Notes: a model not told the origin generated them from the letters alone. 64,000 bases of DNA from a virus (IMGVR_UViG_3300035184_001394:1-64000); one strand, 5' to 3'. Positions 9,885 through 42,027 are shown, numbered from the stretch's first letter. A program made the numbers and translations.

Positions 9885-10748
9885 TTAATTTGTGCGCATA
9901 TCCAATATCGGCATTCCGCCTTCACCAAGGATGGTATATGGCAATTGACCATTCCATTGTTGTGCTTCAGTTAAGTCGACAATAAGTGGATTACTTTTCA
10001 GTGCAGCAGCTTTTGCTTTAATAGCGGAAGCTTCAGCTTCACCTTTTAATCGAATTGAGTTCGCTTCAGCTTCAGCAACAAAGTTAATACCGTCAGCTTT
10101 TGCTTTTGCTATGTTAACACCCTGTTGAGCAACTAGTGCTTGCTTATCAAGATTGAATTGTTCAGCATCAGCTAAGTTTTTAGCAGTCTGTTTAGTTTCA
10201 ATTGATTGCAAGTACTTTGGTGGTAACGTAATATTCTCAATTTGAATGTTATCAACTTTGACTGGGAACGGAGTCATTTCTTCAATTAATAATGATTCAA
10301 TCAACATAATAGCAGAACTACGATCTTGTATTAACTTTTCCGCAGTAAACTTAGGAATAACATCCTTGGTAGCAGAACGGAATCGTGGATCTAATATTCG
10401 ATTTTCAAATTGTTGAAGGCCGCCGTATTGTTTAAATAATTCAAGCGCAGCAGTTTTGTCGACTGTCCAGTTAACAGACACCTTCACTGTGACTGGCATT
10501 TGTTCTGCAGTGCTTGAAGTCATTGCTTCTTCGTTTTTACGAGTACGGATTTCAATTTCTTCGACAGTATCTGCGAATGGTATTTTAAATCGCAAACCTG
10601 GGTTTTGTTGACTTTTTGCTTCAGAGAAGCGTTTAACGATTCCCACGTGTCCTTCAGATACAGTGTACCAGCTTGACCACAATAGAAGAAATATTAGTAG
10701 TCCAATGATAGATGCTACGATAGTTTTAATTGGTAATGTTTTTTGCAT
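9885..10748 (-). CDS. SPFH/band-7 (prohibitin/HflKC-like) membrane protein
   Basis: N-terminal TM helix then an SPFH domain (VSEGHVGIVKRFSE...). Ala/Glu-rich coiled-coil tail typical of HflK/C and prohibitins. Confidence 0.75.
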   Translation of the reverse strand: MQKTLPIKTIVASIIGLLIFLLLWSSWYTVSEGHVGIVKRFSEAKSQQNPGLRFKIPFADTVEEIEIRTRKNEEAMTSSTAEQMPVTVKVSVNWTVDKTAALELFKQYGGLQQFENRILDPRFRSATKDVIPKFTAEKLIQDRSSAIMLIESLLIEEMTPFPVKVDNIQIENITLPPKYLQSIETKQTAKNLADAEQFNLDKQALVAQQGVNIAKAKADGINFVAEAEANSIRLKGEAEASAIKAKAAALKSNPLIVDLTEAQQWNGQLPYTILGEGGMPILDMRTN

Positions 10749-12597: not shown

Positions 12598-15138
12598 TTA
12601 GCAAAAGAATTCATCAAGCGTGTCGCGTTTTTCAGCAGACCAACCTATTGCTTCAACAATTGCTCGAACTGGTGCAAGAAATACTTTCTCGAATTGCAGA
12701 TCGTAATCTATGTACTTGTCTAAACCCAATTCTTGTGGTAACACGCCCGGGAACGATACAATATTTTCGCGTAATGGATTTGGAACTTTCAAATACAGAA
12801 CTTTAACTTTATCTCCACCAATTATATGTTGATACTGTTTAGCTAAACCAGAATCATCTATCATCTTATTATATAGCAAAGCACCACGAACATGGAATGG
12901 ACAACCCTTTTTGTATATTGATTTTTTATCAGAATATTTACCAATATTATCAGTACCTGACGTCTTAGCTACAGAGTGAGCAGGTAACGAATAAAACTCA
13001 GATTTGAAGTCGCTAATAAACTCTTGAACATCTTCTTCACTACCATTCATAATTACTTCGAAAGACTTTTTCATTTTATCGCGACAGACTTGAGGTGTCG
13101 AAGATCGAACAGATTCTAAACCAGTCACAGAGATTTTAGGTTTATCATAATGAACACCTTCACTGTTTAACGTATTCATGATATAACGCTTCTTAGCTAT
13201 AAACACTGATTTATCTGTAATCTTTTCGCGCTTCATTACCATAGCATTACGATAGGCGCCTAAGTCTTTTGCTAAATTAACATAACCATCTTCGATTACT
13301 TTTTCAATTTTAGTACCACAAATCTTATCAAGGAACTGTTCTCCTTCATCACGAGAAATATCAGTTGTACCAAAAGCAGCTTCTATTAATGGACCAAAGT
13401 CTACATATATAGAATCCGTATCAATATAAACAATATAATCTTTGGATGTTGACTTGAGTATTTTATTCAAGTATTCATTAACTGATTTTTCAGCACAACG
13501 AATTGCCAACTGGCCTGACGTAGTAATTGCTTCAGCCATATCATTAATATAATACAAGAAGTAGATATTTGCGACAGCACCGTAAAGGCTGTTCATGGCG
13601 ATCTTTATAGCCATTTGCTGGTTATGTAATTGACTGGCTTGTTTCTTAAGTTCTTTTAGTTTAACGGGATCTTTTTCTATTTCAACTAACTTTTCAACTT
13701 CAAGCATTTCTGTCTTAATAACTTTACGATTACCATAATAAGTTGCGATTATTTCAGGGATAACACCGAGTTTATTATTATCAAAACACGAGCCATTAGC
13801 ACCAACTGACATATCTTTATTATTATTCTTATATTCACGGTTTAAAACCATTTCTTGAGTAACATATTCGTGTTCGTGTGGAAGATATGTTTCTGGTGAC
13901 ATGTTAAATTGCATCATCAAATGCGGATACAGACTGTTTAAATCGAATGATACAATCCACGGATGCATCCCAACTTTGGGATCTTTAACAAAACCACCAA
14001 CAAGATTAGAGCGAATTCCAGGGCTACCTTTAACTGGAGGTACAATCTTATCTTTAATAAGTTTGCGGTAAATTGTACTTTCCCATATACCAACAGTACC
14101 AAATGCATCATTATAGTTTACACCACCTGAATAAGCAACAGTCATAACTAATGATAGTAAACCAGTTTCTTCTTCGAATCTTTGAATAAGTCGAGTATCT
14201 TGTAAGTTATAATCTAAATATAACTGTGGATTTTGTTCATACAAATCAGTAAGAGTACCATAAGCAGAATAATCTAATTTCTTTTCACCAAGTATGACGT
14301 GAGCAATATGATCAAGTTTAAATGATTCCTGAGGACCATACTTATAACCAAACTTTTTAAACGCATCCATGTAATCAATTATTGATATACCAGATATTGA
14401 ATAAGTTGATTGTTCTTTACCAAAGAATTCGCGAGATGTCTTTTTTATTGATCTCCAAGGAGAGAAGTCACGGGCTTTTTCTTCACCAAACAGTCGCATC
14501 ACTCGAGTTACAATATACATAATATCGAAGTATTCAACATTCCAACCGGTAACTACATCAGGATAATCAGCTTTCCATAAGTCGATAAAACGAGATAACA
14601 TTGCTACTTCACTTTCGAATTTAACAAAGACAATATCAGCTGGATCAATACCGGTTATAGTCTTAGTTTTATCGAAGTCTTTACGACCTAACAGAAAATA
14701 TTTGTTAGACTTAGAAGACTTGTATGATATAGAAGTTATTTCTTTATCAGCTTCTTCAATATTTGGATAGCCATCTGATATATCAACTTCAATATCGAAT
14801 GAGCATATGTTAACTAGTGAAATATCAAAAGTAATATCGTCAGGATATTCTTCTTGAATAAACTGAGATACATAGTTAGTGTTACCGTATATTTTGAAGT
14901 TACTCACTTCCTTATAAAGTGCAATAAATTCTTTAGCGTCTCCCATTGAATCAAACTTTTGTGGATTCAATCGCTTATCGCTATATAGTGATTTGTAATC
15001 TCCTTCTGATTTCTTAGTGTGTAAATAAAGTGTTGGACCAAATGGAACACGCTCTGAAAAACGTTCGCCATCTTTGTATCCGCGCCACAGCATATTATTG
15101 CCATATCTTTCAACTGATGTATAAAAATTATTACTCAT
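12598..15138 (-). CDS. 43: gp43 family-B DNA polymerase
   Basis: Exonuclease and polymerase motifs present (YIDTDSIY, KIAMNSLYGA, KKRY). 846 aa, similar to the T4 gp43 length. Confidence 0.95.
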   Translation of the reverse strand: MSNNFYTSVERYGNNMLWRGYKDGERFSERVPFGPTLYLHTKKSEGDYKSLYSDKRLNPQKFDSMGDAKEFIALYKEVSNFKIYGNTNYVSQFIQEEYPDDITFDISLVNICSFDIEVDISDGYPNIEEADKEITSISYKSSKSNKYFLLGRKDFDKTKTITGIDPADIVFVKFESEVAMLSRFIDLWKADYPDVVTGWNVEYFDIMYIVTRVMRLFGEEKARDFSPWRSIKKTSREFFGKEQSTYSISGISIIDYMDAFKKFGYKYGPQESFKLDHIAHVILGEKKLDYSAYGTLTDLYEQNPQLYLDYNLQDTRLIQRFEEETGLLSLVMTVAYSGGVNYNDAFGTVGIWESTIYRKLIKDKIVPPVKGSPGIRSNLVGGFVKDPKVGMHPWIVSFDLNSLYPHLMMQFNMSPETYLPHEHEYVTQEMVLNREYKNNNKDMSVGANGSCFDNNKLGVIPEIIATYYGNRKVIKTEMLEVEKLVEIEKDPVKLKELKKQASQLHNQQMAIKIAMNSLYGAVANIYFLYYINDMAEAITTSGQLAIRCAEKSVNEYLNKILKSTSKDYIVYIDTDSIYVDFGPLIEAAFGTTDISRDEGEQFLDKICGTKIEKVIEDGYVNLAKDLGAYRNAMVMKREKITDKSVFIAKKRYIMNTLNSEGVHYDKPKISVTGLESVRSSTPQVCRDKMKKSFEVIMNGSEEDVQEFISDFKSEFYSLPAHSVAKTSGTDNIGKYSDKKSIYKKGCPFHVRGALLYNKMIDDSGLAKQYQHIIGGDKVKVLYLKVPNPLRENIVSFPGVLPQELGLDKYIDYDLQFEKVFLAPVRAIVEAIGWSAEKRDTLDEFFC

Positions 15139-29845: not shown

Positions 29846-30589
29846 ATGCTTATTTTAAGTAAAACCCACGATTATTATGATTGCGTGTCGCAACACGGTA
29901 TCGACAAAACTATTATCTATAAGAGAAAAGATTCTGAAATAGAATTTAACTCAAATGAATTAAATTTTAAAATACATGATGTTTATCGAGATAGATGTTC
30001 TAGTGTATTAACTGTACGTTTATATTATATCTATTTTTGTGGTAAATTTTACCCAGGAGCTAAAATATCATGGTCACGCGACAGTCCATCTTTAGCAAAT
30101 AATTATAATATGAAAGATCCAGTTTATCATTGCTATTCAATGTATGAATACTTAGCTATCGTTGATCTATATAATAATACACATAATTATAATCAGTTTA
30201 AGATCTTAAAAGATTCAAAAAGAACTGCATATGTTAGCGCGCTTCGTTCACATAAAAAAATGAATTCATTCTTTTCTGATGAAGTAAAAATATCGCATGA
30301 TTTGATTCATAAAATTGGAACTCCAGTTGGCATGGTTGGTATGCGCATACCACGCCCTTTAAATAGTAATATTAAGTCAAATAACATTATTTTTTATAAA
30401 GACATAAATCTAAAGCAATTTGAGTTTTTTAGAGTTAAAGACACTTATATTGCGTTTAGTGAAATTGCTCAATTTATATCTGGTGTGCTTGGTGGTAACA
30501 GTCCACCTCTTATTGAAATAGAAGATAAACACAGAATCACTGGTCGCGGTTTTGACAATATGAGTTTTCGAAAACGCAAAGTAATATAA
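29846..30589 (+). CDS. hypothetical protein (247 aa)
   Basis: Complete ORF. No motif recognised. Confidence 0.55.
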   Translation: MLILSKTHDYYDCVSQHGIDKTIIYKRKDSEIEFNSNELNFKIHDVYRDRCSSVLTVRLYYIYFCGKFYPGAKISWSRDSPSLANNYNMKDPVYHCYSMYEYLAIVDLYNNTHNYNQFKILKDSKRTAYVSALRSHKKMNSFFSDEVKISHDLIHKIGTPVGMVGMRIPRPLNSNIKSNNIIFYKDINLKQFEFFRVKDTYIAFSEIAQFISGVLGGNSPPLIEIEDKHRITGRGFDNMSFRKRKVI

Positions 30590-30669
30590 AAAAATTATTG
30601 ACACCCATTTTTTATTATATTACAGTAGTCTTGTAAATTAATAAAACAACTTGAATTAGGAAATACACA

Positions 30670-30921
30670 ATGTTTAATTTTACACTAGGTAACGACAAGT
30701 TTTTAATAGAAATTAATTACATTTCAGGTATACAGAAGCGCTTTTGGGTATACAGTTTTAATATGAGTAATGGAAATGTAAATAATTGCAACTATGTCTC
30801 TGACTTAAACAGACCAATAGATATTTTTGCTGGTGATAAATACGAAAATAAAATAGAATCAATATATCAAATTGGTTATAAACGCGGCCTATTAAGTTTT
30901 TTAAAAGGGAAAAATAAATGA
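30670..30921 (+). CDS. hypothetical protein (83 aa)
   Basis: AGGAA SD. Overlaps the next gene start (ATGA). Confidence 0.45.
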   Translation: MFNFTLGNDKFLIEINYISGIQKRFWVYSFNMSNGNVNNCNYVSDLNRPIDIFAGDKYENKIESIYQIGYKRGLLSFLKGKNK

Positions 30922-31403
30922 GTAATGATTTAGTAAAAGACATTAGTGAAATGCACCAAAAGTTTGGTGTAAACGACTGGTTTGAAAAGAATAAACACGA
31001 CAAAGTATTAATGAAAGAATTCCTTAGATTCCGTATTAACATGTGTCTTGAAGAATTGCTTGAAACAGCAACTGCAGCCAACTTAGTGCTACATACTGAT
31101 ATTCAAGAAGGTCTAGTGTTTAAAGAATCTCAAAACAACGATTTGTGTATTGATTCTGAAGAAGTAGTAGATGGCTTAATCGATCTTTCTGTGTTCGCTA
31201 TTGGTACATTAGACGTGTTTAATGCTGATGCAAACAAAGCTTGGGATGCTGTATACGATGCGAATATGGTTAAAGAATCTGGTGTTAAACCTGGTCGCCC
31301 AAATAAATGGGGTCTTCCTGATATGATAAAACCGAAAATGGAAACACATGGCTACGACTGGGTAGCTCCATCTCATGAAGGTAATCACGGAGATTTTAAA
31401 TGA
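30918..31403 (+). CDS. MazG-like all-alpha nucleoside triphosphate pyrophosphohydrolase (candidate dCTPase, gp56 analogue)
   Basis: LEELLETATAANLV...VVDGLIDLSVFAIGTLDVF...NKAWDAVYDANMVK shows the MazG/NTP-PPase helix pattern. Confidence 0.55.
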   Translation: MSNDLVKDISEMHQKFGVNDWFEKNKHDKVLMKEFLRFRINMCLEELLETATAANLVLHTDIQEGLVFKESQNNDLCIDSEEVVDGLIDLSVFAIGTLDVFNADANKAWDAVYDANMVKESGVKPGRPNKWGLPDMIKPKMETHGYDWVAPSHEGNHGDFK

Positions 31404-31600
31404 GAAAGGAAATTATAGAAACACTAAAATCTCATGCTATTGGCCATATCAATAAACATAAGATGAACGTCGAGATTTACCTCGCAAACCCAGTTGGTAT
31501 CGGTGAGCATTCAGACGTCATTGAAACTATTGAACTAGAACTTAAACAAATTGCAGAGTATCAAGATCAACTCGAAGTTTTAGAAAAATACTTTAGTTAA
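31400..31600 (+). CDS. hypothetical protein (66 aa)
   Basis: Translationally coupled (ATGA overlap). Confidence 0.4.
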   Translation: MRKEIIETLKSHAIGHINKHKMNVEIYLANPVGIGEHSDVIETIELELKQIAEYQDQLEVLEKYFS

Positions 31601-31609
31601 AAATAACAA

Positions 31610-31638
31610 TTGACATTCCTTTTATTTTAATATATAAT
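31610..31638 (+). promoter_or_regulatory. early promoter (plus)
   Basis: TTGACA, 17 nt, TATAAT. Confidence 0.5.
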
Positions 31639-31681
31639 AGTTGTATATTAATTTAGAAGGTTTTCTAGTACAGGAGTTTAA

Positions 31682-32101
31682 ATGAAATACGATAACGGTA
31701 AAACAGATTTATCATTGATACCACCAGAAGTCTTAGTTGACATTGCGTGTGTATTAGGCTTTGGTGCAAAGAAATATGGTAGGGATAATCACCGCTTTGA
31801 TGCTGGAGAAACTGAATGGAGTAGAGTATATGCTTCAGCCCAACGCCACTTGCATGATTTTTGGTCAGGTGAAGATTTTGACCCAGAATCTGGTCAGAAA
31901 CATATAACACACGCAATTACCCAATTGATTATTCTTGCAACTGCAATTAACGATGGCCATACGAATATGGATGACCGGTTTTTTACAAAATTAAAACAGT
32001 TAAGCACTACAGAAAAACCAAAACCCGACAGTCTCTTAGATACTAAAGCAACTAAACATGCACCCTATGTATATTTAAAGTCTCGGGAGATTATTGAATA
32101 A
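31682..32101 (+). CDS. dNTP pyrophosphohydrolase of the MazZ / dATP-dGTP diphosphohydrolase N-domain type (DUF5664-like)
   Basis: MKYDNGKTDLSLIPPEVLVDIACVLGFGAKKYGRDN...WSRVYASAQRHLHDFWSGEDFDPESGQKHITHAITQLIIL matches the family consensus (KYD.GK...LIPPEAL..LA.VLTFGA.KY...W....W.R...A..RHL..........D.ESG..HLAHA). Confidence 0.6.
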   Translation: MKYDNGKTDLSLIPPEVLVDIACVLGFGAKKYGRDNHRFDAGETEWSRVYASAQRHLHDFWSGEDFDPESGQKHITHAITQLIILATAINDGHTNMDDRFFTKLKQLSTTEKPKPDSLLDTKATKHAPYVYLKSREIIE

Positions 32102-32850
32102 TGATAGTTGAAGATATACGTAAATACTTTAAAGAAGAACTTGCTGCAGAACGTTTCACTATTGATAAAACTGGTGCTAAAACGATCGAGTTGTTAGGTG
32201 CTAGCTTTATTGCTGATGAACCTGCTATTTTTGGTATTCCTAATCAAGAATATATTGATGCTGAAATAAAATGGTACAATAGTTGTTCTACTAATATTAA
32301 TACATTAGAAAAAATTTATGGTAAGAAACCAGCTGCGTGGGCTTACTCAGCAAATTCTTATGGCGAAATCAATTCGAATTATGGTCATCTTTTGTTTGAA
32401 CCAAAGTACTATAATCAATTTGAAAATGCTGTAAAAGAACTAATCAATAACCCTGATAGTAGACGTGCTCAACTAACATACACTAGACCTTCTGTATGGG
32501 TTGATTTTAACGAAAGCGGCAAAAACGATTTCATATGTACTTTAGGTCAACTGTTTTATATACGTGATAATAAATTACATATGGTAAGCATGATGCGAAG
32601 CAACGACTCTTGGGCTGGTTATCGCAATGATTATGCTTGGGCTAAATATCTTATGGAACTCGCTGTTAACGAATACAATGTTGGATGTGAAAATACTCCT
32701 ATTGCTATTGGTAATCTGTATTGGCAAGTAGCCAATATGCACATATATGAAAGAAATTTCTATTTAGTTGATTATTATTCAAAAACAGGTAAATTTCATA
32801 TTTCTAAACCCGACTATGCTGCAAAATATCCGAATAGTCAATATAATTAA
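32101..32850 (+). CDS. 42: gp42 deoxycytidylate 5-hydroxymethyltransferase
   Basis: Nearly collinear with T4 gp42: VDKTGAKTIELLGASFIADEP, GEINSNYG, NPDSRRAQLTYTRPS, MRSNDSWAGYRNDYAW (Asp retained, so cytosine-specific), HIYERNFYLVDYY, HISK.DY..KY. Confidence 0.9.
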   Translation: MIVEDIRKYFKEELAAERFTIDKTGAKTIELLGASFIADEPAIFGIPNQEYIDAEIKWYNSCSTNINTLEKIYGKKPAAWAYSANSYGEINSNYGHLLFEPKYYNQFENAVKELINNPDSRRAQLTYTRPSVWVDFNESGKNDFICTLGQLFYIRDNKLHMVSMMRSNDSWAGYRNDYAWAKYLMELAVNEYNVGCENTPIAIGNLYWQVANMHIYERNFYLVDYYSKTGKFHISKPDYAAKYPNSQYN

Positions 32851-32853
32851 CTG

Positions 32854-32882
32854 TTGACATTTCGGTTTAAGCTTGTTATAAT
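32854..32882 (+). promoter_or_regulatory. early promoter plus leader (plus)
   Basis: GTTGACATTT, 17 nt, TATAAT, AGTTACATAAATTTATTAGGAA ATG. Confidence 0.5.
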
Positions 32883-32911
32883 AGTTACATAAATTTATTA
32901 GGAAATATATT

Positions 32912-33364
32912 ATGTGTGATAAGTGGCATAAACGTTACCTTCATTTAGCAAAGAATATTGCTTCATGGAGCAGAGATCCTTCTCGTAAAATCGGAGCAGT
33001 TGCTATTGGTTCTAAAGGTCAGGTATTAGCTCAAGGTTTCAATGGATTCCCTCGGGGTATTCGAGATACTGAAGAAAGATATAATGACCGCGAGACTAAG
33101 TATAAATATGTCGTACACGCTGAAATGAACTGTATATATAACGCTACGTATAGTGGTGTTAGCCTTGATGGTAGTTCATTATATGTGCATGGTTTACCAG
33201 TTTGTTCTGAATGCGCTAAAGGTATTATTCAAACTGGAATCAAAGAAGTATTTTGGTCTGCTGATGAAGAAATACCAGTAAGATGGTGTGATGCTTATAA
33301 GATAACAAAGAATATGCTTCTAGAAGCTGGCATAAATATAACATATGTAAACATAGGAGAATAA
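32912..33364 (+). CDS. cd: dCMP deaminase
   Basis: Zinc-binding HAEMNC...PCSECAK motifs. Confidence 0.85.
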   Translation: MCDKWHKRYLHLAKNIASWSRDPSRKIGAVAIGSKGQVLAQGFNGFPRGIRDTEERYNDRETKYKYVVHAEMNCIYNATYSGVSLDGSSLYVHGLPVCSECAKGIIQTGIKEVFWSADEEIPVRWCDAYKITKNMLLEAGINITYVNIGE

Positions 33365-33367
33365 AAA

Positions 33368-33730
33368 TTGGAAGATGATTTATTACCAACAATAAGTGCG
33401 GTTATATTACTACCAGAGAGTAGATCTGACGTAACAAGATATGTGTTGATTGGAGATTTTAAATATGCTGGATTTGAAGTTCCAAGTGGGTTTGTGACTG
33501 ACGGTTTGACTATACCAAGGATATTTTGGAGCATACTACCACCCATTCACAGATACTTTCCTGCAGCCATAATTCATGATTATCTATTAACACAAGTATC
33601 TCGCGTAGAAGCTGACAGAGAGTTTAAGATTGTACTGAAAAAGCTAAATATATCTAGAGTGCGTAGATTTTTAATGGCTGCCGCAGTAAGATTATATTCA
33701 ACAATACTAAAAATATTAAATAAAAGTTGA
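33368..33730 (+). CDS. DUF1353 family protein (TTG start)
   Basis: FVTDGLTIPRIFWSILPP...AAIIHDYLL matches the DUF1353 signature. AGGAGA SD 8 nt before TTG. Confidence 0.6.
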   Translation: MEDDLLPTISAVILLPESRSDVTRYVLIGDFKYAGFEVPSGFVTDGLTIPRIFWSILPPIHRYFPAAIIHDYLLTQVSRVEADREFKIVLKKLNISRVRRFLMAAAVRLYSTILKILNKS

Positions 33731-33755
33731 CATTATAATCAACTTGTGATATAGT
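33727..33755 (+). promoter_or_regulatory. early promoter (plus) with an unusually long (about 80 nt) leader before the MIPS gene
   Basis: TTGACA, 17 nt, TATAGT. Confidence 0.45.
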
Positions 33756-33837
33756 AGTATCAATTAAACAACTGTGGGCTACTCTGCTTAAACCCAGCCA
33801 ATCCCACATTAATAAACTGAAATAATAGAGGAAGAAA

Positions 33838-35118
33838 ATGTCTAAAATTAATATCGCTATTGCCGGCGTCGGTAATTGCTCATCAGCACTTATTCAAGGT
33901 GTAGAATACTATAAAGAAAATCCAGAAGATACCATAGGTCTTATGTTTGAAGACATCGGTGGTTTTTCTGCTAAAAACTTTAATTTTGTTGTTGGATTTG
34001 ATGTCGATGCCCGTAAAGTTGGCCAACGATTAAATAACTCAATCTATGCTAAACCAAATTGTAACATGGAAGTATATCCTCCAAGTCATAATTTGACTTG
34101 TATAGCATCTAAATCGACAGTATACAGATCGCCAACATTTGATGGTATAGCACCTCACATGCACGATTTACATCCTGATATATCCTTCGTAGAAGATACA
34201 GAAACTCTGGCTATCACGGCTAATGAATACATTCAAATTCTTAAAGATAACAAAGTTGATGTATTACTTAACTATATGCCAGTTGGTTCTGAAACAGCAG
34301 CTCGTTGGCACATTGAAAATGCTATTCGCGCAGGTGTCCATATTGTTAACTGTATGCCAACATATATATCTACTAAAGATGCAATGGAACTTGAGAGACT
34401 TGCTATCGAACATGGCGTAACAGTTGTTGGTTCTGACATGCGTTCTGATTACGGCGCGTCACGTTTATCTGAGGTGTTACAAGGTTCAATTATGGATTCT
34501 GGATTGTTGGTTACTCAACACATCCAAGAAAACAAAGCTTGTGGAACTACTCAAGGTGATATGCGCCGTACTGGTCGTACTGCAAATACTGACTTCTTAA
34601 ACATGGCAACTAAAGATCGTTTAAAAAATAAACATATCTCTAAAGAAAATGTTTTAAATGGTCAAGCTGCTGTACGTGGTAAAGATATTGCTGGTCTTAC
34701 AATGTATGCTGGTCCGTCACTTACAGTTTTCCAAAAACCAGGTGATGAATACATTGGTTCAGATAATAAGATTGCTAATATTGATATGGTATTCTGGGGA
34801 TGGGCTGGGGCTCGCTATGAATTGACTGCTCGTTTATCTGTTCAAGATTCTCCTAATAGTGCTGGAATTGTATTTGATGCAGTTCGTTTTTGCAAAGTTG
34901 CTGCTGAGATGGGTATTGTTGGTTACTTACGTGGTCCATCGGCACACTCTCAAAAGACACCACCAACTCAGCTAAAAACTGCTGATTCAAAATTCGAATG
35001 CGAAGCATTAGCTCGTAGGATTTTAACTGATCTTACTCGTCCGCAACTCGCCGAAAATTACCCACAAGTTGAAGATTTGCTTTATACATTCCAAGCTGAT
35101 ACTTCAGATTACGAATAA
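33838..35118 (+). CDS. myo-inositol-1-phosphate synthase (MIPS/Ino1 family, bacterial-actinobacterial type)
   Basis: Collinear with mycobacterial Ino1, recalled from memory. INIAIAGVGNCSSALIQGVEYYK matches VAIVGVGNCASSLVQGVEYYY. KVDVLLNYMPVGSE matches KVDVLVSYLPVGSE. LSVQDSPNSAGIVFDAVRFCKVA matches [23 protein letters not shown]. Confidence 0.85.
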   Translation: MSKINIAIAGVGNCSSALIQGVEYYKENPEDTIGLMFEDIGGFSAKNFNFVVGFDVDARKVGQRLNNSIYAKPNCNMEVYPPSHNLTCIASKSTVYRSPTFDGIAPHMHDLHPDISFVEDTETLAITANEYIQILKDNKVDVLLNYMPVGSETAARWHIENAIRAGVHIVNCMPTYISTKDAMELERLAIEHGVTVVGSDMRSDYGASRLSEVLQGSIMDSGLLVTQHIQENKACGTTQGDMRRTGRTANTDFLNMATKDRLKNKHISKENVLNGQAAVRGKDIAGLTMYAGPSLTVFQKPGDEYIGSDNKIANIDMVFWGWAGARYELTARLSVQDSPNSAGIVFDAVRFCKVAAEMGIVGYLRGPSAHSQKTPPTQLKTADSKFECEALARRILTDLTRPQLAENYPQVEDLLYTFQADTSDYE

Positions 35119-35132
35119 AGGAAAAATATATT

Positions 35133-35510
35133 ATGAATACTTTTGATATTGATGGTGTGATTTATATGGGTAAAGACCATGACGGCGTTTACCCTGGGCC
35201 GAACGACTTGATTATTACTGGTCGTTCTATTGAAGAAAAACCAGAAACTATTAGGATGCTGCAGCAGAAAGGGATTAATAATAAAGTTTATTTTAATCCC
35301 TTACCATTTAAACAAAAGACCAGAGAAAGTTCTGGTCACCATAAAGCAGACATCATTTCAGCTCTTATTACATTAGGTTGTCCTATAGATATCCACTTTG
35401 AAGATGATCCAATACAAGCTGATATAATCAAAAAGGTTACATCAATTCACGTTGTATTATTAAACCACAACTTAACTGAAAAGGAGAATATGCGCCATGG
35501 GGGATACTGA
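35133..35510 (+). CDS. small HAD-superfamily phosphatase (125 aa)
   Basis: N-terminal FDIDGVIY (HAD motif I DxDGV) and C-terminal IHFEDD (motif IV). Confidence 0.5.
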   Translation: MNTFDIDGVIYMGKDHDGVYPGPNDLIITGRSIEEKPETIRMLQQKGINNKVYFNPLPFKQKTRESSGHHKADIISALITLGCPIDIHFEDDPIQADIIKKVTSIHVVLLNHNLTEKENMRHGGY

Positions 35511-36240
35511 AATGTATAAAGGCTATAAAATTAGAACAGGCCCGGGTATTGATCGTGATATGATTCGCGATTCACTAAAACATTATAGCCACTTCTCACT
35601 TGATAAAAAATCAGTAGTGCTTGATCTTGGTTCTAATATTGGTGGATTTACTAGGATGGCAAACGAAAAAGAAGTTAAACAATACATAGCAGTAGAACCA
35701 GATCCAGAAAATATGGAATTAACAACTGTTAATTCCATAGACGGAAGTAATAACTTATATTTGTTGGGTGTAGCCTCTATTTCTGAATCAGAACATTTAA
35801 CGTTTTTTCAATCTAATGCTGTAAGATCAAAATGCTCTGGAACTATTAATAGTAAAAGTCAAACAGCTACTAGAAAGAATGGCACTGCATACGATGTTGT
35901 TAATTATAATGTGTATGAACTGTTGGAAAAATATAAACCTACTCATGTCAAATGTGATATAGAAGGAGCAGAAATTGATTGGTTAGCTGATTGCGAAGGT
36001 ATATTTCCAGACTATATTCAGGAGTTGGCGTTTGAGTTGCATGGTAGAGCTGGTATAGTAGAACTCGAGCGATATTACGATAATATAATTGAACATTTTG
36101 AAATAGTTAGTTTTGTTCCATCTGTTGGGTTTAAAGGCAGTTTTAATAAAAAAGACGCTGTACTGTATGAAAAAGTTGGATATACAACAGAAGGTACTTT
36201 GTGGAGCATAGACTTATTCTTGCGTAGAAGAGTAAAATAA
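35497..36240 (+). CDS. FkbM-family SAM-dependent methyltransferase
   Basis: VVLDLGSNIGGFT is the FkbM motif (D.GAN.G.F). Confidence 0.65.
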   Translation: MGDTEMYKGYKIRTGPGIDRDMIRDSLKHYSHFSLDKKSVVLDLGSNIGGFTRMANEKEVKQYIAVEPDPENMELTTVNSIDGSNNLYLLGVASISESEHLTFFQSNAVRSKCSGTINSKSQTATRKNGTAYDVVNYNVYELLEKYKPTHVKCDIEGAEIDWLADCEGIFPDYIQELAFELHGRAGIVELERYYDNIIEHFEIVSFVPSVGFKGSFNKKDAVLYEKVGYTTEGTLWSIDLFLRRRVK

Positions 36241-37406
36241 TGATTGATGGTACACATAAATCATACGAAGTACCTAAAGGATTTAAATCTGCTGACTCAA
36301 ATTATCCACTGGATAAATATTTTGATTTGTGCGACGTTGAGAAATTTCTTGACTTTAAATATTTTGTATGCGAAGTTAATAAGAGATCGGAATGGCAAAG
36401 GGGTCTTATTACAACATACGATTATAAAGAGTATGCTCTTAATCCAAATACAGAATACTTTCATCCGATGATTACATACGACGATCGTATGGTTTATATC
36501 GCTGAAAATATAGTAGGATTATCAAGCGACACTTTATCTCTACACAATAAGATTGGTAACACAATTATATCTCACTTCTATGGAGCTAGAGGTATTCACC
36601 AGATTGCCACTCGTAATAATGACGTTAAAACTGCTCATGTTGATTTTGAAAACTATTTTACTACTGACGAGCGCTCTCGTATACGAGAAAATTTAAAACT
36701 TTCAAAAATTGCTGGTTTGCCTATATATGGTTCTACTGAATTGCGTACTTCTCTCTGGGGTGCTGCAAACAAATATCAACAAAGCCGTTTTAATGTTACA
36801 ACCGAAGAAGAAAGAAAGCACCCTGGAAATATTATGGATTGGGTAGCTGGTTTATGCGAAGATGGAACTTTTGATCGTTTAATTAGTTGTAATTCTATTA
36901 AAGAAGCATTTAATGAACTCACTTCTAACGCTGGTATTGGAAGTTATTATGGATTCCATTGTGCTACTTCAAATTCAGTAAACCCTGAGTTGAACTGGAC
37001 TAATGATGATAACTTCGTTAAACCTGGACCTGGTGCTCAATATACTTTAAAGTTGATGTTTCCAAACGCAACAAATAAGTTAATTAACAGTGGCGATCTT
37101 GTTATATGGTTTAGACACAATCAAAAGTTCTTTGGTTTTGGCGATATTGAAATCCATGAATCTGCTCATAATATTTTAAATTTTGAAGGCAAAAAGATTC
37201 TTGAAAAAGATCAAACCGAAATGATGACTTATGGTTCTGAGGTTGCTATGTGCCAATATGGTATTTTTTGTAAGTTGCGCGAAGATAAAAAAGCTTGCGA
37301 TAGACGTAAAGTTGCCCGTATAGGAGATAGAAACATTGAAAAAATGCTAAATATGGCTGAGCAAGAACAAATTTCTCAAGCAGCATTTCAACAATTTTTT
37401 ACATGA
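36240..37406 (+). CDS. hypothetical protein (388 aa) within the modification module
   Basis: Translationally coupled to FkbM (ATGA). No motif recognised. Confidence 0.5.
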   Translation: MIDGTHKSYEVPKGFKSADSNYPLDKYFDLCDVEKFLDFKYFVCEVNKRSEWQRGLITTYDYKEYALNPNTEYFHPMITYDDRMVYIAENIVGLSSDTLSLHNKIGNTIISHFYGARGIHQIATRNNDVKTAHVDFENYFTTDERSRIRENLKLSKIAGLPIYGSTELRTSLWGAANKYQQSRFNVTTEEERKHPGNIMDWVAGLCEDGTFDRLISCNSIKEAFNELTSNAGIGSYYGFHCATSNSVNPELNWTNDDNFVKPGPGAQYTLKLMFPNATNKLINSGDLVIWFRHNQKFFGFGDIEIHESAHNILNFEGKKILEKDQTEMMTYGSEVAMCQYGIFCKLREDKKACDRRKVARIGDRNIEKMLNMAEQEQISQAAFQQFFT

Positions 37407-37413
37407 GGTAAAT

Positions 37414-38517
37414 ATGAAAACAATTATAGCAGCACCATTCATCCCTATGTCGTTTCAGATAACGAGTCATAGGGCAGCACAAGGAATTATATATGCTGAT
37501 TTGCTTAAACACTATCACACAGACGATATTTCAGTAAGCTTATCTAGACCAAGCGTACAAGGTCCCGAAGCTAAAGAATCAAACAAAACAGAAGATTTTA
37601 ACGAATATGATAGATTATATATCTATCATGGTAATGATCGTAAAGCAGACGCTGGTGATCTAAACTTTTTTGGTGGAACTCGAAATTTCCCTCATGCTTA
37701 CAATATTAGAAATATTTCTAAATTTAAAGGTGAAGTTTATTCTATTGGATATGATATGCCTGATTATGCTACTATGTTAGAGCACAAGATTACTGGCCAT
37801 GAAAAGCGAGATGGTACACTTGACACAATGGTTCCTGAATTTCTCGAAGTTGATATTGATAATTTAAGAGCAATGCAAGAAAGAGCGATCACAATTATAC
37901 CACAACATCCTAGTTGGAGCGGTTTAGTGATCGGTGATAGTCATGCTATTTGTATGTATCGTGAAGGATATAATGTTAATTCAGTTCCGTTTAAAACTTT
38001 GTATGGAGCCTTAGAATTAGGCTTAAAAAGTTTCATAAATAAAAATGACATTAAGGATATTGAATGTTACTTTGGTAACATTGATATACGTCATCACATT
38101 TGTAGACAGGACGATCATAAACAAGCTATTAGAGATCTTGTTGATCGTTATGTCGACCAAGTCGATTCTTTGGATATGGAAAGTAAAGTGATCTATGAAC
38201 TATTACCTATCGAAAACGAACGCAGAAATCTTCCAAAAAGCGGATGGTATCTTGGTGAGAAATTTCATGGTACGTGGGCTGAGCGTAACGCAGCAAGACT
38301 TTACTTTAAAGAATACTCAATGAAAAGAGTTCAAGGAACGAGTGTTGAATTTCGTGAATGGCTCACTCCATCGTATTATAATGAATTAGGTGAACTTGAT
38401 TTTAAAGCTATGGAGCGACCAAAATCAGTTCATTTATCTCGTGAATACTATCCTCATTGGCAAGGACTTGAATACAATAAAATTAATAAAACAACAATTG
38501 AGGATTTTTTTCAATGA
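37414..38517 (+). CDS. T4 beta-glucosyltransferase-like DNA glycosyltransferase (GT-B)
   Basis: MKTIIA... and NEYDRLYIYHG...DLNFFGGTRNF parallel T4 beta-gt MKIAIINMG... and NDYDRLIVVNSSINFFGGK. Similar length (367 vs 351 aa). Confidence 0.5.
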   Translation: MKTIIAAPFIPMSFQITSHRAAQGIIYADLLKHYHTDDISVSLSRPSVQGPEAKESNKTEDFNEYDRLYIYHGNDRKADAGDLNFFGGTRNFPHAYNIRNISKFKGEVYSIGYDMPDYATMLEHKITGHEKRDGTLDTMVPEFLEVDIDNLRAMQERAITIIPQHPSWSGLVIGDSHAICMYREGYNVNSVPFKTLYGALELGLKSFINKNDIKDIECYFGNIDIRHHICRQDDHKQAIRDLVDRYVDQVDSLDMESKVIYELLPIENERRNLPKSGWYLGEKFHGTWAERNAARLYFKEYSMKRVQGTSVEFREWLTPSYYNELGELDFKAMERPKSVHLSREYYPHWQGLEYNKINKTTIEDFFQ

Positions 38518-39740
38518 AGCACGCAACGATCATACCACTTATAGGAGGCGAAGCACTAGCATCTACTGAAGTATTTGGAACTAAACCAGAATACATTTTG
38601 TCTTATAAAGGATTTGAAAACAATGAAAAACACTTACTAAACTATTGGAATAACGAAGTACCCTATCATGTACTTGACGATGAGAACAGTATTGCTCCTA
38701 AAAATATTAATGAGAAAGTTGATGTTATATCGAGTGTCTGTCCTTGTGCTGGATTAAGTCAATATCATTCTAAACACGGAGCTGAAAATCAAAATAACCA
38801 ATGGATGGAGAAAACAGCCAAGCATATTCTAGAAACCGTACAACCGAGTGTATTTTGGGGAGAAAATGCTCCTGCTCTTGTTGGTAAGATCGGTGAGTTT
38901 ATGTTAACTAAACTACGTAAAATTGGCCTCGATAATGGATACTCTATGGGTCTATATCTTACTAAGAATATTAAACATGGTATTCCACAATTTCGTAAAC
39001 GCACTTTCTATTTCTTCTGGAAGAAAAGCGAGTTTGGTGATACTGCACCAATGCTTAAATTTATTAACAAAGAACACACAAAAATTGAAGATGTAATTAT
39101 GAGCGCTACTGGTAGTACACAGTTAGAACCAATTAATTCTAAAATTCCAAGCAAAGACGATCCTTACTATAGATATCTTCTTGAAGTAATTCATGGTGGT
39201 ATTACGCATAGAGAATATTTTGAGTTATTAAAAACTAAAAATGTTCGAGGCAACGATGTAGAATCTATTATTATAAATTCAGGTCACGATTATATGATGG
39301 TTGGTGAATGGATGGAAAAAAATGGATACGACAGAGAAGTTCCAAAATGTGAACGAAAATATCATAAGCTAAAAGATGGTGGCAATATAATGCGACGTGG
39401 CACTATTATTCCTAAAGATTATATTGGAGCTTTTGTTGGTCATTATCCGACAGTTCTTACTCATCCATATGAAGATCGTTATATTAATTATCGCGAAGCA
39501 ATGACTATTATGGGATTACCACAAGATTACGAATTGTTAGACCCTAAAAAATCTGCTAATCATATTTGTCAGAATGTTCCATTACAAACTGCTAAAGATA
39601 TGGTGTTAGAAATTAAAGCTGTTTTCGAAGGAAAGCGCCAATTTTCTGATACTGATTTTTTATTACAATCTAACATAAACGAAACATCCAGAACTTTGAA
39701 TATACCAGATAAAGAGCAAAGTTTAGAATCATTTTTCTGA
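38514..39740 (+). CDS. C5-cytosine methyltransferase-like protein
   Basis: Motif I IIPLIGGEA, motif IV SSVCPCAGLS (Pro-Cys), motif VI FWGENAPAL (ENV), motif VIII QFRKR, motif X REAMTIMGLPQDY. Last gene of the module. Confidence 0.65.
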   Translation: MKHATIIPLIGGEALASTEVFGTKPEYILSYKGFENNEKHLLNYWNNEVPYHVLDDENSIAPKNINEKVDVISSVCPCAGLSQYHSKHGAENQNNQWMEKTAKHILETVQPSVFWGENAPALVGKIGEFMLTKLRKIGLDNGYSMGLYLTKNIKHGIPQFRKRTFYFFWKKSEFGDTAPMLKFINKEHTKIEDVIMSATGSTQLEPINSKIPSKDDPYYRYLLEVIHGGITHREYFELLKTKNVRGNDVESIIINSGHDYMMVGEWMEKNGYDREVPKCERKYHKLKDGGNIMRRGTIIPKDYIGAFVGHYPTVLTHPYEDRYINYREAMTIMGLPQDYELLDPKKSANHICQNVPLQTAKDMVLEIKAVFEGKRQFSDTDFLLQSNINETSRTLNIPDKEQSLESFF

Positions 39741-39748
39741 AATGATTG

Positions 39749-39777
39749 TTGACATTTAAACACAAACATGTTATAAT
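39749..39777 (+). promoter_or_regulatory. early promoter (plus) upstream of dexA
   Basis: GTTGACATTT, 17 nt, TATAAT. Confidence 0.5.
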
Positions 39778-39805
39778 ATGGAACATTAGTTAATTGGGGT
39801 AGTAA

Positions 39806-40438
39806 ATGAAAAAAGAATTATTAATAGATTTCGAAACATTAGGAATAAATCCTGAAAATTGCGTAGTACTCGACTGCTCGATTATTATCTTCGACAGAGA
39901 GAGATTCACATCTGATAAACCGTACACAGTAGCGGATATTACTGAAACTAAAACATTTAAAATATCTGTTACTGATCAGGTTAACAATTACAATTATGCT
40001 GTTGAAAACAGTGTTATTGAATTTTGGTCTAAACAAGATAAAGAAGTGCGAGCAAAAATTAAGCCGCTACCAACTGATCTTACTGTTAAGGAATTTACTG
40101 ATCAGTTTCTCAACTTAGTTTCTCAGCACAAAATTAGTTATTGGTGGTCTCGTGGAAACACGTTTGATCCACCTATTCTAACTAGAATTTTTGATGATCA
40201 AGGTAAGAAAAATGAATTAAATAAGAATTTAAAATATTGGGCAGTAAGAGATATGCGCACGTTTATTGACGCAAAACTCGATTTCCCGAAAGAAAATGGT
40301 TTTTCTCCTTTTGAAGATGAAGTAAAATGGGGGAAAATATTTAAAAAGCATGATAGCTCTTGGGATGTTTTAGCTGATGTTTTAAGATTACAAGCGATCG
40401 CGAGAGCCGAAGATGATTTGGAACAAGTGAAATTATGA
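39806..40438 (+). CDS. dexA: DexA exonuclease A (DEDD 3'-5' exonuclease)
   Basis: LLIDFETLG (Exo I), WSRGNTFDPPIL matches T4 CRGMSFDFPIL, and WAVRDMRTFIDA. Confidence 0.8.
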   Translation: MKKELLIDFETLGINPENCVVLDCSIIIFDRERFTSDKPYTVADITETKTFKISVTDQVNNYNYAVENSVIEFWSKQDKEVRAKIKPLPTDLTVKEFTDQFLNLVSQHKISYWWSRGNTFDPPILTRIFDDQGKKNELNKNLKYWAVRDMRTFIDAKLDFPKENGFSPFEDEVKWGKIFKKHDSSWDVLADVLRLQAIARAEDDLEQVKL

Positions 40439-41286
40439 AGATAGAAGCGACAATTGAACAATTAAGAGGAGCATCACTTTTTATTGGCGCACCAATGTAT
40501 GGAGGTAATTGCTCTGGTTTATTCACTAAATCTTGTACTGACTTATCTTCAATATGCGCGCTTAACGGAATTAAATTACAATACTATTTCTTATTCAACG
40601 AAAGTTTAGTTCAAAGAGCGCGAAATTACGTTACTGACGAATTTATGCGTTCTGGTTGTACTCATCTAATGTTTATAGACTCAGACATTGGTTTCGATGC
40701 TAGAGATGTTCTACACTTATTAAGCCTTCAGATATTAGATCCCAAGTATGATGTAATAACTGGACCTTATCCTAAGAAAACAATAGCTTGGGAAAAAGTT
40801 AGTAAAGCAGCTAAACTCGGCCATGGCGCAGAAAACCCCTTTGAATTAGAGAAATTTACAGCTGATTTCGTATTCAACCCAGAAGACAATAAAAATAGTT
40901 TTAATCTCGGTGAACCAATTAAAGTTAAAGAAGCAGGAACTGGTTTCATGTTAATTCCTCGCGTAACTCTTGAAAAATATCAAGAAGCTTATCCTGAAAT
41001 GAATTACAAACCAGACCACTTGCGATCTGAATCTTTTGACGGAGCTCGTAATATTACAGCATTTTTTGATTGTATTATAGACCCTAAGACGAAACGTTAT
41101 TTGTCTGAAGATTATTTCTTTTGTCATAAGACTCGTGAAGCTGGGATGAGTGTTTGGATGTGCCCTTGGATGCAAATCAACCATGTTGGTTCTTATATAT
41201 TTAGAGGCAATATGGCTGCGATTACTCAGTTGGGTGTTACTGCAACAGCAGACAATTCTGGTCAAAAGAAGAATTATAAAAAATAA
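40435..41286 (+). CDS. putative GT-A-type glycosyltransferase (DxD-like LMFIDSDIGF)
   Basis: A hydrophobic stretch followed by DSD, typical of GT-A DXD. Otherwise unknown. Confidence 0.35.
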   Translation: MKIEATIEQLRGASLFIGAPMYGGNCSGLFTKSCTDLSSICALNGIKLQYYFLFNESLVQRARNYVTDEFMRSGCTHLMFIDSDIGFDARDVLHLLSLQILDPKYDVITGPYPKKTIAWEKVSKAAKLGHGAENPFELEKFTADFVFNPEDNKNSFNLGEPIKVKEAGTGFMLIPRVTLEKYQEAYPEMNYKPDHLRSESFDGARNITAFFDCIIDPKTKRYLSEDYFFCHKTREAGMSVWMCPWMQINHVGSYIFRGNMAAITQLGVTATADNSGQKKNYKK

Positions 41287-41302
41287 TTCATAAATAAAAA
41301 CG

Positions 41303-41331
41303 TTGACATGTACATAAATGTGTTATATAAT
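41303..41331 (+). promoter_or_regulatory. early promoter (plus) upstream of gene 45
   Basis: TTGACA, 17 nt, TATAAT, AGGAA. Confidence 0.5.
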
Positions 41332-41364
41332 ATCTAACTAATAAACAAATAGGAATACAATATC

Positions 41365-42027
41365 ATGAAATTTTCTGAAAGAACTATCACGATCCTTAAA
41401 AGTTTTTCTTCTATTAATAAGTCAATATTAATGCAAGAAGGTCAAACTATTAAAACGATTACTCCTGAAAAGACACTTATCGCAAGTGCCAATATTCCTG
41501 AGACAATTCCATCTCAAGCTTGCATATACGACTTATCAAGATTCTTGTCAATCTTGAGTTTGTATAGCGATCCGGATGTTAAGTTTAATGATACTCACTT
41601 TATTATATCGGAAGGTAAGCGCAGAACAAAATATATATATGCTGATGTTTCGATGATTCACACGCCACCAGCTAAAGAAATCAAGATTCCAACACAAGAC
41701 GTCGTTGTTGATGTTAAATGGGACGATCTTCAATCTGTTCTTAAGGCAGCTGGTGTTTTGCAGTTCTCTGAAGTTGCATTTGTCGGAGATGGCGACAAAT
41801 GTTATCTTAAAGCAATTGATAGTTCAACCGAAGGTGCAGACGATTATGGAGTTGAAATCGGCGAGACTGGCGACACGTTTAAGATTATAGTTAAAACAGA
41901 TAACCTTAAATTATTACCGCAAGATTACAGCGTTACTATTTGTGCTAAGGGTATATCTGAATTTAAAGGTAATGAAGTTACGTATTTCGTTGCTATTGAT
42001 TCTAAGTCAACTTACATTAAAGGATAA
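41365..42027 (+). CDS. 45: gp45 sliding clamp
   Basis: MKFSERTITILKSFSSINKSILMQEGQ matches T4 MKLSKDTTALLKNFATINSGIMLKSGQ. Similar length (220 vs 228 aa). Confidence 0.85.
   Translation: MKFSERTITILKSFSSINKSILMQEGQTIKTITPEKTLIASANIPETIPSQACIYDLSRFLSILSLYSDPDVKFNDTHFIISEGKRRTKYIYADVSMIHTPPAKEIKIPTQDVVVDVKWDDLQSVLKAAGVLQFSEVAFVGDGDKCYLKAIDSSTEGADDYGVEIGETGDTFKIIVKTDNLKLLPQDYSVTICAKGISEFKGNEVTYFVAIDSKSTYIKG

Follow-up and report, generated by a model that had tools for sequence, protein, structure and literature searches.

DNA cytosine C5-methyltransferases (C5-MTases) such as M.HhaI, M.HaeIII and Dcm (PF00145) share a common fold and motifs IV (P-C), VI (EN), VIII (QxRxR), IX and X, and the motif VI Glu donates a proton to N3 of the cytosine once it is flipped out. 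Gln82 of M.HhaI packs against the group being transferred, and the Q82A substitution lowers methylation ~16-fold and raises the transfer of an extended group 4-fold (PMC3526304). With 5-hydroxymethylcytosine (5hmC, or hmC) in DNA, C5-MTases form covalent complexes, remove the CH2OH group and couple thiols without S-adenosylmethionine (SAM) (PMC8829811, PMC11347137); SAM-free reactions on 5hmC were described by Liutkeviciute 2009/2011, as cited in PMC8829811. Among phages, CmoX of Synechococcus phage S-B43 is a DNA cytosine C5-carboxymethyltransferase (PDB 8yf3; PMC12783734). Cytosine hypermodification clusters, some of them in marine T4-like phages, also combine a C5-MTase (MT) with TET(5mYOX) and glycosyltransferases (GT); the MT makes 5-methylcytosine (5mC), which TET oxidizes to 5hmC (PMC8256090; bioRxiv 2023.12.21.572611). 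Here we describe a gene with this fold (hereafter MT-like) at positions 38514-39740 of a 64,000-nucleotide (nt) stretch of viral DNA, IMGVR_UViG_3300035184_001394:1-64000 (hereafter the window, meaning the whole stretch), where it closes an island of hmC modification genes. Judged by its conserved residues, the MT-like protein has an intact base-activating machinery and a consistently remodeled cofactor and C5-facing pocket, and its C terminus resembles that of the phage's own DNA polymerase. The protein probably works on phage DNA just after replication, in a manner not previously described.

The MT-like gene and its family

The window phage, described as marine T4-like, is uncultured and AT-rich (~33% G+C), and encodes a T4-like set comprising gp32, gp59, gp43, gp46/47, UvsW, topoisomerase II, gp45 and gp44. 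No near DNA match to the window was found among 50,697 phage records. The open reading frame (ORF) in question is a genuine gene, with the following features:

38514..39740 (+): MT-like gene, C5-MTase fold, 408 amino acids (aa), ATG start, last gene of the hmC modification island
38514..38517 (+): ATGA start/stop overlap of 4 nt with the upstream gene, with GAGGA 9 nt upstream
39749..39777 (+): sigma70-type consensus promoter, TTGACA-17 nt-TATAAT, a perfect match read from sequence, inside the 65 nt that separate MT-like from an exonuclease gene

The start/stop overlap reported in a first-pass annotation of this DNA was confirmed, and the consensus promoter just downstream places the MT-like gene last in its transcription unit.

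The predicted protein matched PF00145 (E=5e-21, 75.9 bits, cutoff 22), and its AlphaFold2 (AF2) model (mean per-residue confidence, pLDDT, 89.6) had HhaI, HaeIII, DNMT1, MET1 and CmoX as top Foldseek matches in the PDB, at E ~1e-13 and a template modeling (TM) score of ~0.67 on the target. The model thus combines the class-I methyltransferase fold with the small DNA-recognition domain of PF00145 enzymes (EC 2.1.1.37). A PDB search with the single sequence returned zero matches, and the profile version aligned motifs IV-VIII and IX-X only. In all, 2,495 homologs were recovered, and an exhaustive HMMER search at E<=1e-30 gave 373 clusters (50% identity), nearly all of them full length. Cultured relatives at the protein level were limited to S-TIM5-type phages, XG4 and phage G, at 25-30% identity. 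Conservation was assessed in an alignment of 135 sequences with identities down to 28% (132 cluster representatives plus the window, S-TIM5 and XG4 proteins), to which all counts out of 135 below refer. One family member, P0330 (598 aa), carries a fused C-terminal zf-CXXC domain (E=6.6e-07), which in eukaryotic DNMT1, TET and MLL binds unmethylated CpG DNA.

Conserved catalytic motifs and an altered cofactor pocket

The first-pass annotation had read all principal Dcm-type motifs in the protein. Profile alignment to HhaI and HaeIII bears this out for motifs IV, VI, VIII, IX and X (CPCAGLS, ENA, QFRKR, REAMTIMGLP and QNVP, respectively), which are invariant or nearly so across the family, but not for motif I (IIPLIGG), the motif II acid or the Gln of PCQ. 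Moreover, the NCBIfam dcm model (TIGR00675) scored 39.5 bits against a cutoff of 100.65, and on its motifs the protein is not a textbook Dcm. The motifs are placed as follows:

38535..38549 (+): variant motif I, P8-L9-I10-G11-G12, in place of the FxGxGG loop (P8 in 132/135, L9 in 131/135, G11 in 133/135, G12 in 130/135)
38739..38759 (+): motif IV, C76-P77-C78-A79-G80-L81-S82, aligned to HhaI GFPCQAFS (C78 in 134/135)
38862..38870 (+): motif VI, E117-N118-A119, ENV-type, aligned to HhaI ENV (E117 in 135/135, N118 in 133/135)
38988..39002 (+): motif VIII, Q159-F-R161-K-R163, aligned to HhaI QKRER (Q159 in 133/135, R161 and R163 in 135/135)
39492..39581 (+): motifs IX-X, R327-E328 ... Q353-N354-V355-P356, aligned to HaeIII RECARVQGFP...GNAVPV (E328 in 129/135, Q353 in 132/135, N354 in 129/135)

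Within motif IV, C76-P77-C78 aligned with HhaI F-P-C81, which retains the Pro-Cys pair and makes Cys78 the presumed nucleophile toward C6. The motif VI Glu, the QxRxR of motif VIII and motifs IX and X are likewise all present. As in other C5-MTases, motifs VIII and IX are separated by a large insert where the target-recognition domain would be, and in the family alignment this region is the more variable (mean top-residue frequency 0.30 vs 0.58 in the core).

The protein differs from M.HhaI, M.HaeIII and Dcm around the cofactor and the C5 position. Motif I reads [IV]PL[IV]GG in the family (I7-P8-L9-I10-G11-G12 in the window) and lacks the FxGxG(G) pattern of the SAM-binding loop. At the position of the motif II acid (HhaI E40, CmoX E47) stands S30, which is Ser in 117 and Thr in 11 of the sequences (128/135), and Trp occupies the HhaI Leu100 position in ~80% of the family. 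Position 79, equivalent to HhaI Gln82, is Ala in 109, Ser in 18 and Gly in 6 of the 135, and never Gln. A similar Gln-to-small change beside the catalytic Cys has been engineered in M.HhaI Q82A(/Y254S/N304A) (PMC3526304); the M.HhaI activities, however, are laboratory made or side reactions, whereas the change in the MT-like family is natural and fixed. Other cofactor contacts are kept: position 31, after S30, is aromatic in 127/135 (HhaI Trp41, CmoX Phe48), D55 (HhaI D60) is Asp in 95/135, and N354 corresponds to HhaI N304. In the window protein, P8-G12, S30-Y31, A79, W97 and N354 would line the pocket.

The first 60 residues, which hold the motif I-III region, never aligned to C5-MTase profiles (Pfam, PDB profile, hhalign). 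Because hhalign of this N terminus to M.HhaI failed, the mapping of motifs I-III rests on predicted secondary-structure order and on an HhaI sequence verified at residues 70-174 and 272-295 only; assignment of the motif II acid to S30 is moderately secure.

A divergent cofactor site could also mean that the protein carries out no DNA-modifying catalysis, serving instead as a base-flipping or hmC-binding accessory, or that it is a DNMT2-like enzyme making m5C in RNA, and other DNA modifiers are always found alongside it. We regard this as quite improbable, since the near-absolute conservation of the Cys, the Glu and both Arg in 135 clusters reaching down to 28% identity implies catalysis, and the C-terminal tail described below implies DNA, not RNA, as the substrate.

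CmoX, as a phage C5-MTase fold repurposed for hypermodification, is the natural comparison. It uses Phe25, Glu47, Phe48 and Asp69 together with Arg350 for the carboxyl group, whereas the MT-like family has Asn354 at this HhaI-N304 position (129/135) and changed SAM contacts. The Asn in place of the defining Arg rules out the CmoX solution; in addition, no match to CmoA or CmoY was found among ORFs 29846-42027. A looser version, in which a larger-than-methyl group would pass from a SAM analog onto unsubstituted cytosine in CmoX style and provide a second C5 handle beside hmC, draws on the phage precedent of CmoX and on the natural Q82A-like change, which widens the pocket around the transferable group. 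The same Asn354 and the missing CmoA-like gene tell against it, as does the fact that the canonical Phe/Glu/Asp SAM contacts kept in CmoX are changed here; furthermore, its substrate, unmodified C, would be just as scarce as for any other cytosine methyltransferase in this phage. We therefore consider it improbable.

A putative clamp-binding tail shared with DNA-level modifiers

In T4, the gp43 tail EKASLDFLFG (motif SLDFLFG) is the epitope for the gp45 clamp; gp33 and gp55 share it in interchangeable form, and a loop of T4 ligase holds a copy (PMC6212786, PMC2988020). The following window features bear on the MT-like C terminus, which ends in a comparable acidic-hydrophobic peptide nearly identical to that of its own polymerase (SLESFF vs TLDEFFC):

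39720..39737 (+): MT-like tail S403-L-E-S-F-F408 (...EQSLESFF), putative gp45-binding epitope
12598..15138 (-): gp43 DNA polymerase (Pfam DNA_pol_B), tail ...RDTLDEFFC at 12601-12621, the reference clamp-binding tail
38494-38514 (+): tail of p367, ...TTIEDFFQ
37386-37403 (+): tail of p388, ...AAFQQFFT
41365..42027 (+): gp45 sliding clamp (PF09116, phrog_223), presumed docking partner

An ending of the [TS][LI][ED]xFF type is common to gp43, the MT-like protein and the products of the two genes just upstream of it (p388 and p367), and is found in none of the other window ORFs (83 ORFs). It is present in 97/120 close MT-like homologs. Counted by family across loci, the tail was carried by 51/62 MT-like, 22/29 p367, 11/15 p388, 5/5 GT4-type and 3/15 alpha-glucosyltransferase (AGT)-type proteins, and by no gp42 (0/44), PRA-PH (0/30), Ino1 (0/12), HAD (0/12), exonuclease (0/20), p283 (0/51), gp45 (0/48) or gp44 (0/40) protein. 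Among 1,046 unique ORFs of related loci, nearly all carriers belonged to these modifier families or were gp43. The tails of the polymerase and the MT-like protein also co-vary across three lineages:

Lineage 1: polymerase T[LI][ED]xFF, MT-like [TN]L[ED]xF[FILM]
Lineage 2: polymerase VDMFSF, MT-like IDLFENQ
Lineage 3: polymerase YTTSLF, MT-like KVNSTF or KVKSII, a weaker resemblance

In locus L191, K-x-LF ends both the MT-like protein and an adjoining GT-like protein. In the AF2 model of the MT-like protein, the tail comprises a flexible linker (pLDDT<50 at 397-402) followed by a helix at 404-407, and PCNA-tethered DNMT1 offers an analog of the proposed clamp tethering.

These patterns suggest that DNA-level modifiers, including the MT-like protein, travel with the phage sliding clamp and target phage DNA just after its replication. 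Host DNA, which the first-pass annotation had listed as an optional target, is disfavored by such a tail, as is RNA. A literature search, incomplete in its coverage, found no report of a clamp-binding tail on phage C5-MTase-like or other phage DNA-modifying enzymes.

Expected hmC synthesis by the gp42 homolog

The island opens with genes acting at the nucleotide level:

32101..32850 (+): gp42 homolog, T4-type dCMP hydroxymethylase (1b49, E=7e-71), with NDFICT...RSND...RNDYAW
30918-31403 (+): PRA-PH/MazG-like protein, nucleotide-level partner
31682-32101 (+): dGTP_diPhyd_N protein, nucleotide-level partner
32912-33364 (+): dCMP deaminase, nucleotide-level partner

In thymidylate synthase (ThyA)-fold enzymes, Asp at the N177 position marks dCMP as substrate, Asp/Glu at L143 marks water addition, and Asn at D169 marks a 5-hydroxy-dCMP synthase (PMC13326640). 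The window gp42, with its catalytic Cys, and all 121 complete linked homologs have the signature D/C/D/D at ThyA L143/C146/D169/N177, in agreement with its earlier assignment as the hmC maker. The Asp at the D169 position excludes a 5-hydroxy-dCMP synthase of the RB69 kind, and the signature as a whole speaks against a thymidylate synthase. The PRA-PH/MazG-like, dGTP_diPhyd_N and dCMP deaminase set is also kept upstream in related loci, and this gene set, together with gp42, has been tied to fully modified cytosine in metagenomic selection experiments (PMC8670742; bioRxiv 2024.12.05.627091). On this gene content, hmC DNA is expected in the window phage. A related island (L005 3480-4055) encodes a homolog of T4 endonuclease IV (denB), a cytosine-DNA-specific nuclease, which is consistent with phage DNA free of unmodified C.

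The puzzle raised by the first-pass annotation, namely a C5-MTase in a phage whose cytosines should already be substituted at C5, is therefore real, given the intact catalytic set. The analogy it drew to MTase-plus-GT clusters is not a direct one. In MT+TET+GT clusters 5hmC arises from 5mC, whereas in the window phage it would come pre-replicatively from gp42. No TET_JBP Pfam match was found in ORFs of at least 90 aa between 29846 and 42027, nor in the L104 neighbors, and we rejected an MT+TET reading on the grounds that TET/JBP was not found in the island.

Proposed activity on 5hmC

Of the readings considered, we rank action on 5hmC first, because the pocket is altered much as in variants with disabled methyl transfer and more room at C5, and because C5-MTases are known to engage 5hmC. 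In the proposed sequence of events, the SLESFF tail would dock the MT-like protein on the gp45 clamp, from which it would scan newly replicated phage DNA. By the chemistry of its family, the enzyme would then flip a cytosine-type base; Cys78 would attack C6, with Glu117 and Arg161/Arg163 holding N3/N4 and O2. The likeliest substrate would be 5hmC itself, because nascent cytosines are expected to be 5hmC and because the C5 and cofactor pocket is remodeled. Formation of the C6 adduct would activate the exocyclic CH2-OH, with a second substrate seated where SAM once bound, and the outcome would be a further-derivatized 5-substituted cytosine.

That the MT-like protein is a phage-specific enzyme of C5-MTase fold acting on 5hmC, with a second substrate in the former SAM site, is a serious possibility that we place somewhat short of an even chance. 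We are more tentative about the specific version, in which the protein no longer methylates cytosine and clamp-tethered Cys-C6 catalysis exchanges or elaborates the hydroxymethyl group of 5hmC. It is likewise conceivable, if doubtful, that such a 5hmC exchanger is a natural counterpart of laboratory SAM-free 5hmC derivatization, producing a hypermodified cytosine in abundant marine T4-like phages. That this constitutes a new activity is, on the whole, possible rather than probable.

Several points weigh against action on 5hmC. To our knowledge, nearly all characterized PF00145 proteins move a group from SAM or carboxy-SAM to unsubstituted C5. The aromatic residue at position 31 (HhaI W41), D55 and N354 are retained cofactor contacts, so an adenosyl/amino-acid cofactor may still bind. 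Within gp42-selected loci, the MT-like gene occurs in only 8/80 and 20/117, and T4 manages without such an enzyme. In the L088-L109 and L191 types of locus, no gp42 was found within +-10 kb of the MT-like gene. Finally, full replacement of C by hmC in the window phage is deduced from its genes, and the substrate and product of the MT-like protein are predictions from sequence.

The same observations lend themselves to a different use of the clamp. A tethered MTase could methylate, with SAM, the few cytosines that escape hmC replacement in new phage DNA, such that every packaged C bears a C5 substituent and is guarded against host restriction and the phage's own anti-cytosine nucleases. The fold and full catalytic set of C5-MTases, the retained adenine-stacking aromatic, D55 and N354, and a tail suited to scanning nascent DNA fit this role, as do the endonuclease IV homolog in L005 and the presence of the MT-like gene in lineages where gp42 is not seen nearby. 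However, the cytosines left for it to methylate would be few and scattered at random, the family never has the Gln that HhaI needs for efficient methyl transfer, other residues stand in for motif I and the motif II acid, and T4 copes without such an enzyme; so marginal a task also hardly explains the strong conservation with gp42. We consider this mop-up role, close to the residual-C option of the first-pass annotation, rather unlikely, though it is the chief rival to action on 5hmC.

Genomic context in related phages

Context was compared across 80 IMG/VR loci with MT-like identities of 52-76%. The usual order is PRA-PH ... gp42, dCMP deaminase, a variable cassette, MT-like, an exonuclease or small DUF3310 protein, p283, gp45 and gp44, and gp42 was followed by dCMP deaminase, the cassette and MT-like in 30/30 loci with enough flank (>=8.3 kb upstream). 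The upstream gene ended 0-8 nt from the MT-like start whatever its type, and it came from at least five unrelated families: the SGNH protein, a GT4/GT1 enzyme, UDP-galactopyranose mutase, a 361-aa protein without an assigned family and a homolog of the T4 DNA alpha-glucosyltransferase (PF11440, E=4e-73). Since the type of upstream gene varies, the start/stop overlap reflects operon packing behind a swappable cassette and no specific partnership. The role in the modification pathway that the first-pass annotation had based on this overlap is better argued from the constant position of the MT-like gene at the 3' end of the gp42 island. Conversely, the p367/Ino1/HMUDK_hel cassette adjoins gp42 without an MT-like gene in L247, L249, L251 and L254.

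On jumbo-size contigs (L120, L124, L139), too, gp42 is paired with the MT-like gene, as it is in Pseudoalteromonas phage XG4, which is unrelated and carries gp42, HAD, nucleotidyltransferase/kinase, two GT-like genes and MT-like in that order. In S-TIM5, an MT-like homolog (30% identity) lies 2.4 kb from a gene annotated 'ThyA' (L001 5766-6602, -). The latter carries Asp where E. coli has N177, a dCMP-specific signature, and Cys at L143, and may yield a C5-modified dCMP as its product instead of dTMP.

In L088-L109, L112-L114 and L122 (e.g., L104 541-12258), and in L191 (4126-12497), all of them T4-like lineages, a large sugar cluster ends with the MT-like gene. The sugar/GT clusters of the L088-L109 and L191 types adjoin clamp and polymerase genes. 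Their content includes KDO8P-synthase-like, CapD-like dehydratase, acetyltransferase, DegT aminotransferase and GT2 genes, as well as HAD, kinase, nucleotidyltransferase, GT-B-like and epimerase genes; no dCMP deaminase, PRA-PH or TET gene was found within 10 kb in these lineages.

Scanning 185,579 genomes of bacteria and archaea yielded 15 matches, all of them T4-like phage contigs mis-binned into metagenome-assembled genomes (MAGs), and no restriction-modification (R-M) context or bacterial member of the family; the scan used two peptide patterns, and absence from bacteria is not proven thereby. The family is found on phage contigs only, which sets it apart from M.HhaI, M.HaeIII and Dcm, as do its clamp-type tail and lack of R-M context.

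These distributions bear on the possibility of an ordinary orphan C5-MTase, anti-restriction or host-directed, that merely lies beside modification genes. Phages often carry such enzymes, the gene that abuts the MT-like start differs between loci, which leaves no specific partner, and the majority of gp42 phages are without an MT-like gene. Nonetheless, the constant place of the gene and its presence with gp42 in 30/30 loci of this clade, the recurrence of the pairing in unrelated phages and, within the limits of the scan, the absence of the family from bacterial genomes are hard to reconcile with a chance neighbor; the tail moreover suggests phage DNA in replication as the target in preference to that of the host, and the cofactor motifs are non-canonical. 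An orphan MTase thus appears improbable.

One further gene appeared at first to be a possible partner:

40435-41286 (window): p283 (phrog_1574), downstream of MT-like in 53/53

It is a conserved putative glycosyltransferase, with weak but consistent matches to GT-A families (Anp1 in 15/16 members, GT21 in 14/16) and no match in a PDB sequence search. p283 is also syntenic beside gp45 in T4-like phages without the island (DLP6, Cr30, phiM12). We dropped it as evidence for a functional partnership because it is a lineage-core gene also present in DLP6, which has no gp42 island. A literature search, again of incomplete coverage, returned MT+TET+GT clusters, CmoX, a 5hmC carbamoyltransferase and a 5-hydroxycytosine (5hoC) pathway, and no C5-MTase-like gene fixed in gp42 islands.

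The upstream cassette

Between dCMP deaminase and the MT-like gene, the window carries the following cassette:

33838-35118 (+): inositol-3-phosphate-synthase homolog (Ino1; TIGR03450, E=1.6e-58, under cutoff)
35133-35510 (+): small HAD/PNK-phosphatase-like protein
35497-36240 (+): FkbM methyltransferase
36240..37406 (+): p388, HMUDK_hel (helical domain of 5-hydroxymethyldeoxyuridine [5-hmdU] DNA kinase; PF18723, E=2.4e-12), tail ...FQQFFT
37414..38517 (+): p367, N-terminal alpha/beta plus SGNH/GDSL-hydrolase-fold domain (G174-D175-S176-H177), tail ...IEDFFQ

The gene that overlaps MT-like had been taken for a beta-glucosyltransferase (bgt). Its product, p367, is instead a protein of SGNH/GDSL fold and shows neither the GT-B fold nor the PF09198 domain of the T4 enzyme. 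A PDB profile search with p388 gave no match. In the window (36240-38517), p388 (388 aa) and p367 (367 aa) are separate genes in that order; in Aeromonas phages 31/44RR2.8t, the HMUDK_hel and SGNH proteins form one 795-aa fusion in the opposite order (ORF233c, phrog_17781; L007 7001-9388). No FkbM gene was found in the 80 closest related loci. The genes at 33838-36240 hint at a cyclitol-type, not sugar-nucleotide, decoration of hmC.

Other features of the window

Outside the island, UvsX seems to be either split or broken up by an intein, as the UvsX/RecA-like ORF 1299-2204 (region 703-2204, -) has Hint/intein-splicing domain matches at its C-terminal end. A heme oxygenase gene adjoins one for a ferredoxin-dependent bilin reductase (4437-5689, -), an auxiliary pigment-metabolism pair familiar from marine phages. 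The early region also encodes a ClpP/NfeD-like serine protease and an SPFH/Band-7 protein (6578-7189 and 9885-10748, -).

Implications

Cultured carriers of the MT-like gene exist in Pseudoalteromonas phage XG4 and cyanophage S-TIM5, and an E. coli system with gp42 and gp1 that makes hmC DNA has been published. Enzymes of such a kind are wanted as tools for 5mC/5hmC sequencing and DNA labeling. If the MT-like protein acts on 5hmC or transfers a non-methyl group, this would be a new activity for a very well-studied fold. The common clamp tail suggests a recruitment principle, whereby phage hypermodifiers assemble on the sliding clamp, which would explain how post-replicative modification becomes complete. 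Should the MT-like protein act on 5hmC or transfer a non-methyl group, it would probably also give a large set of ocean phages (373 clusters, >2,400 close homologs) a DNA base not described before.

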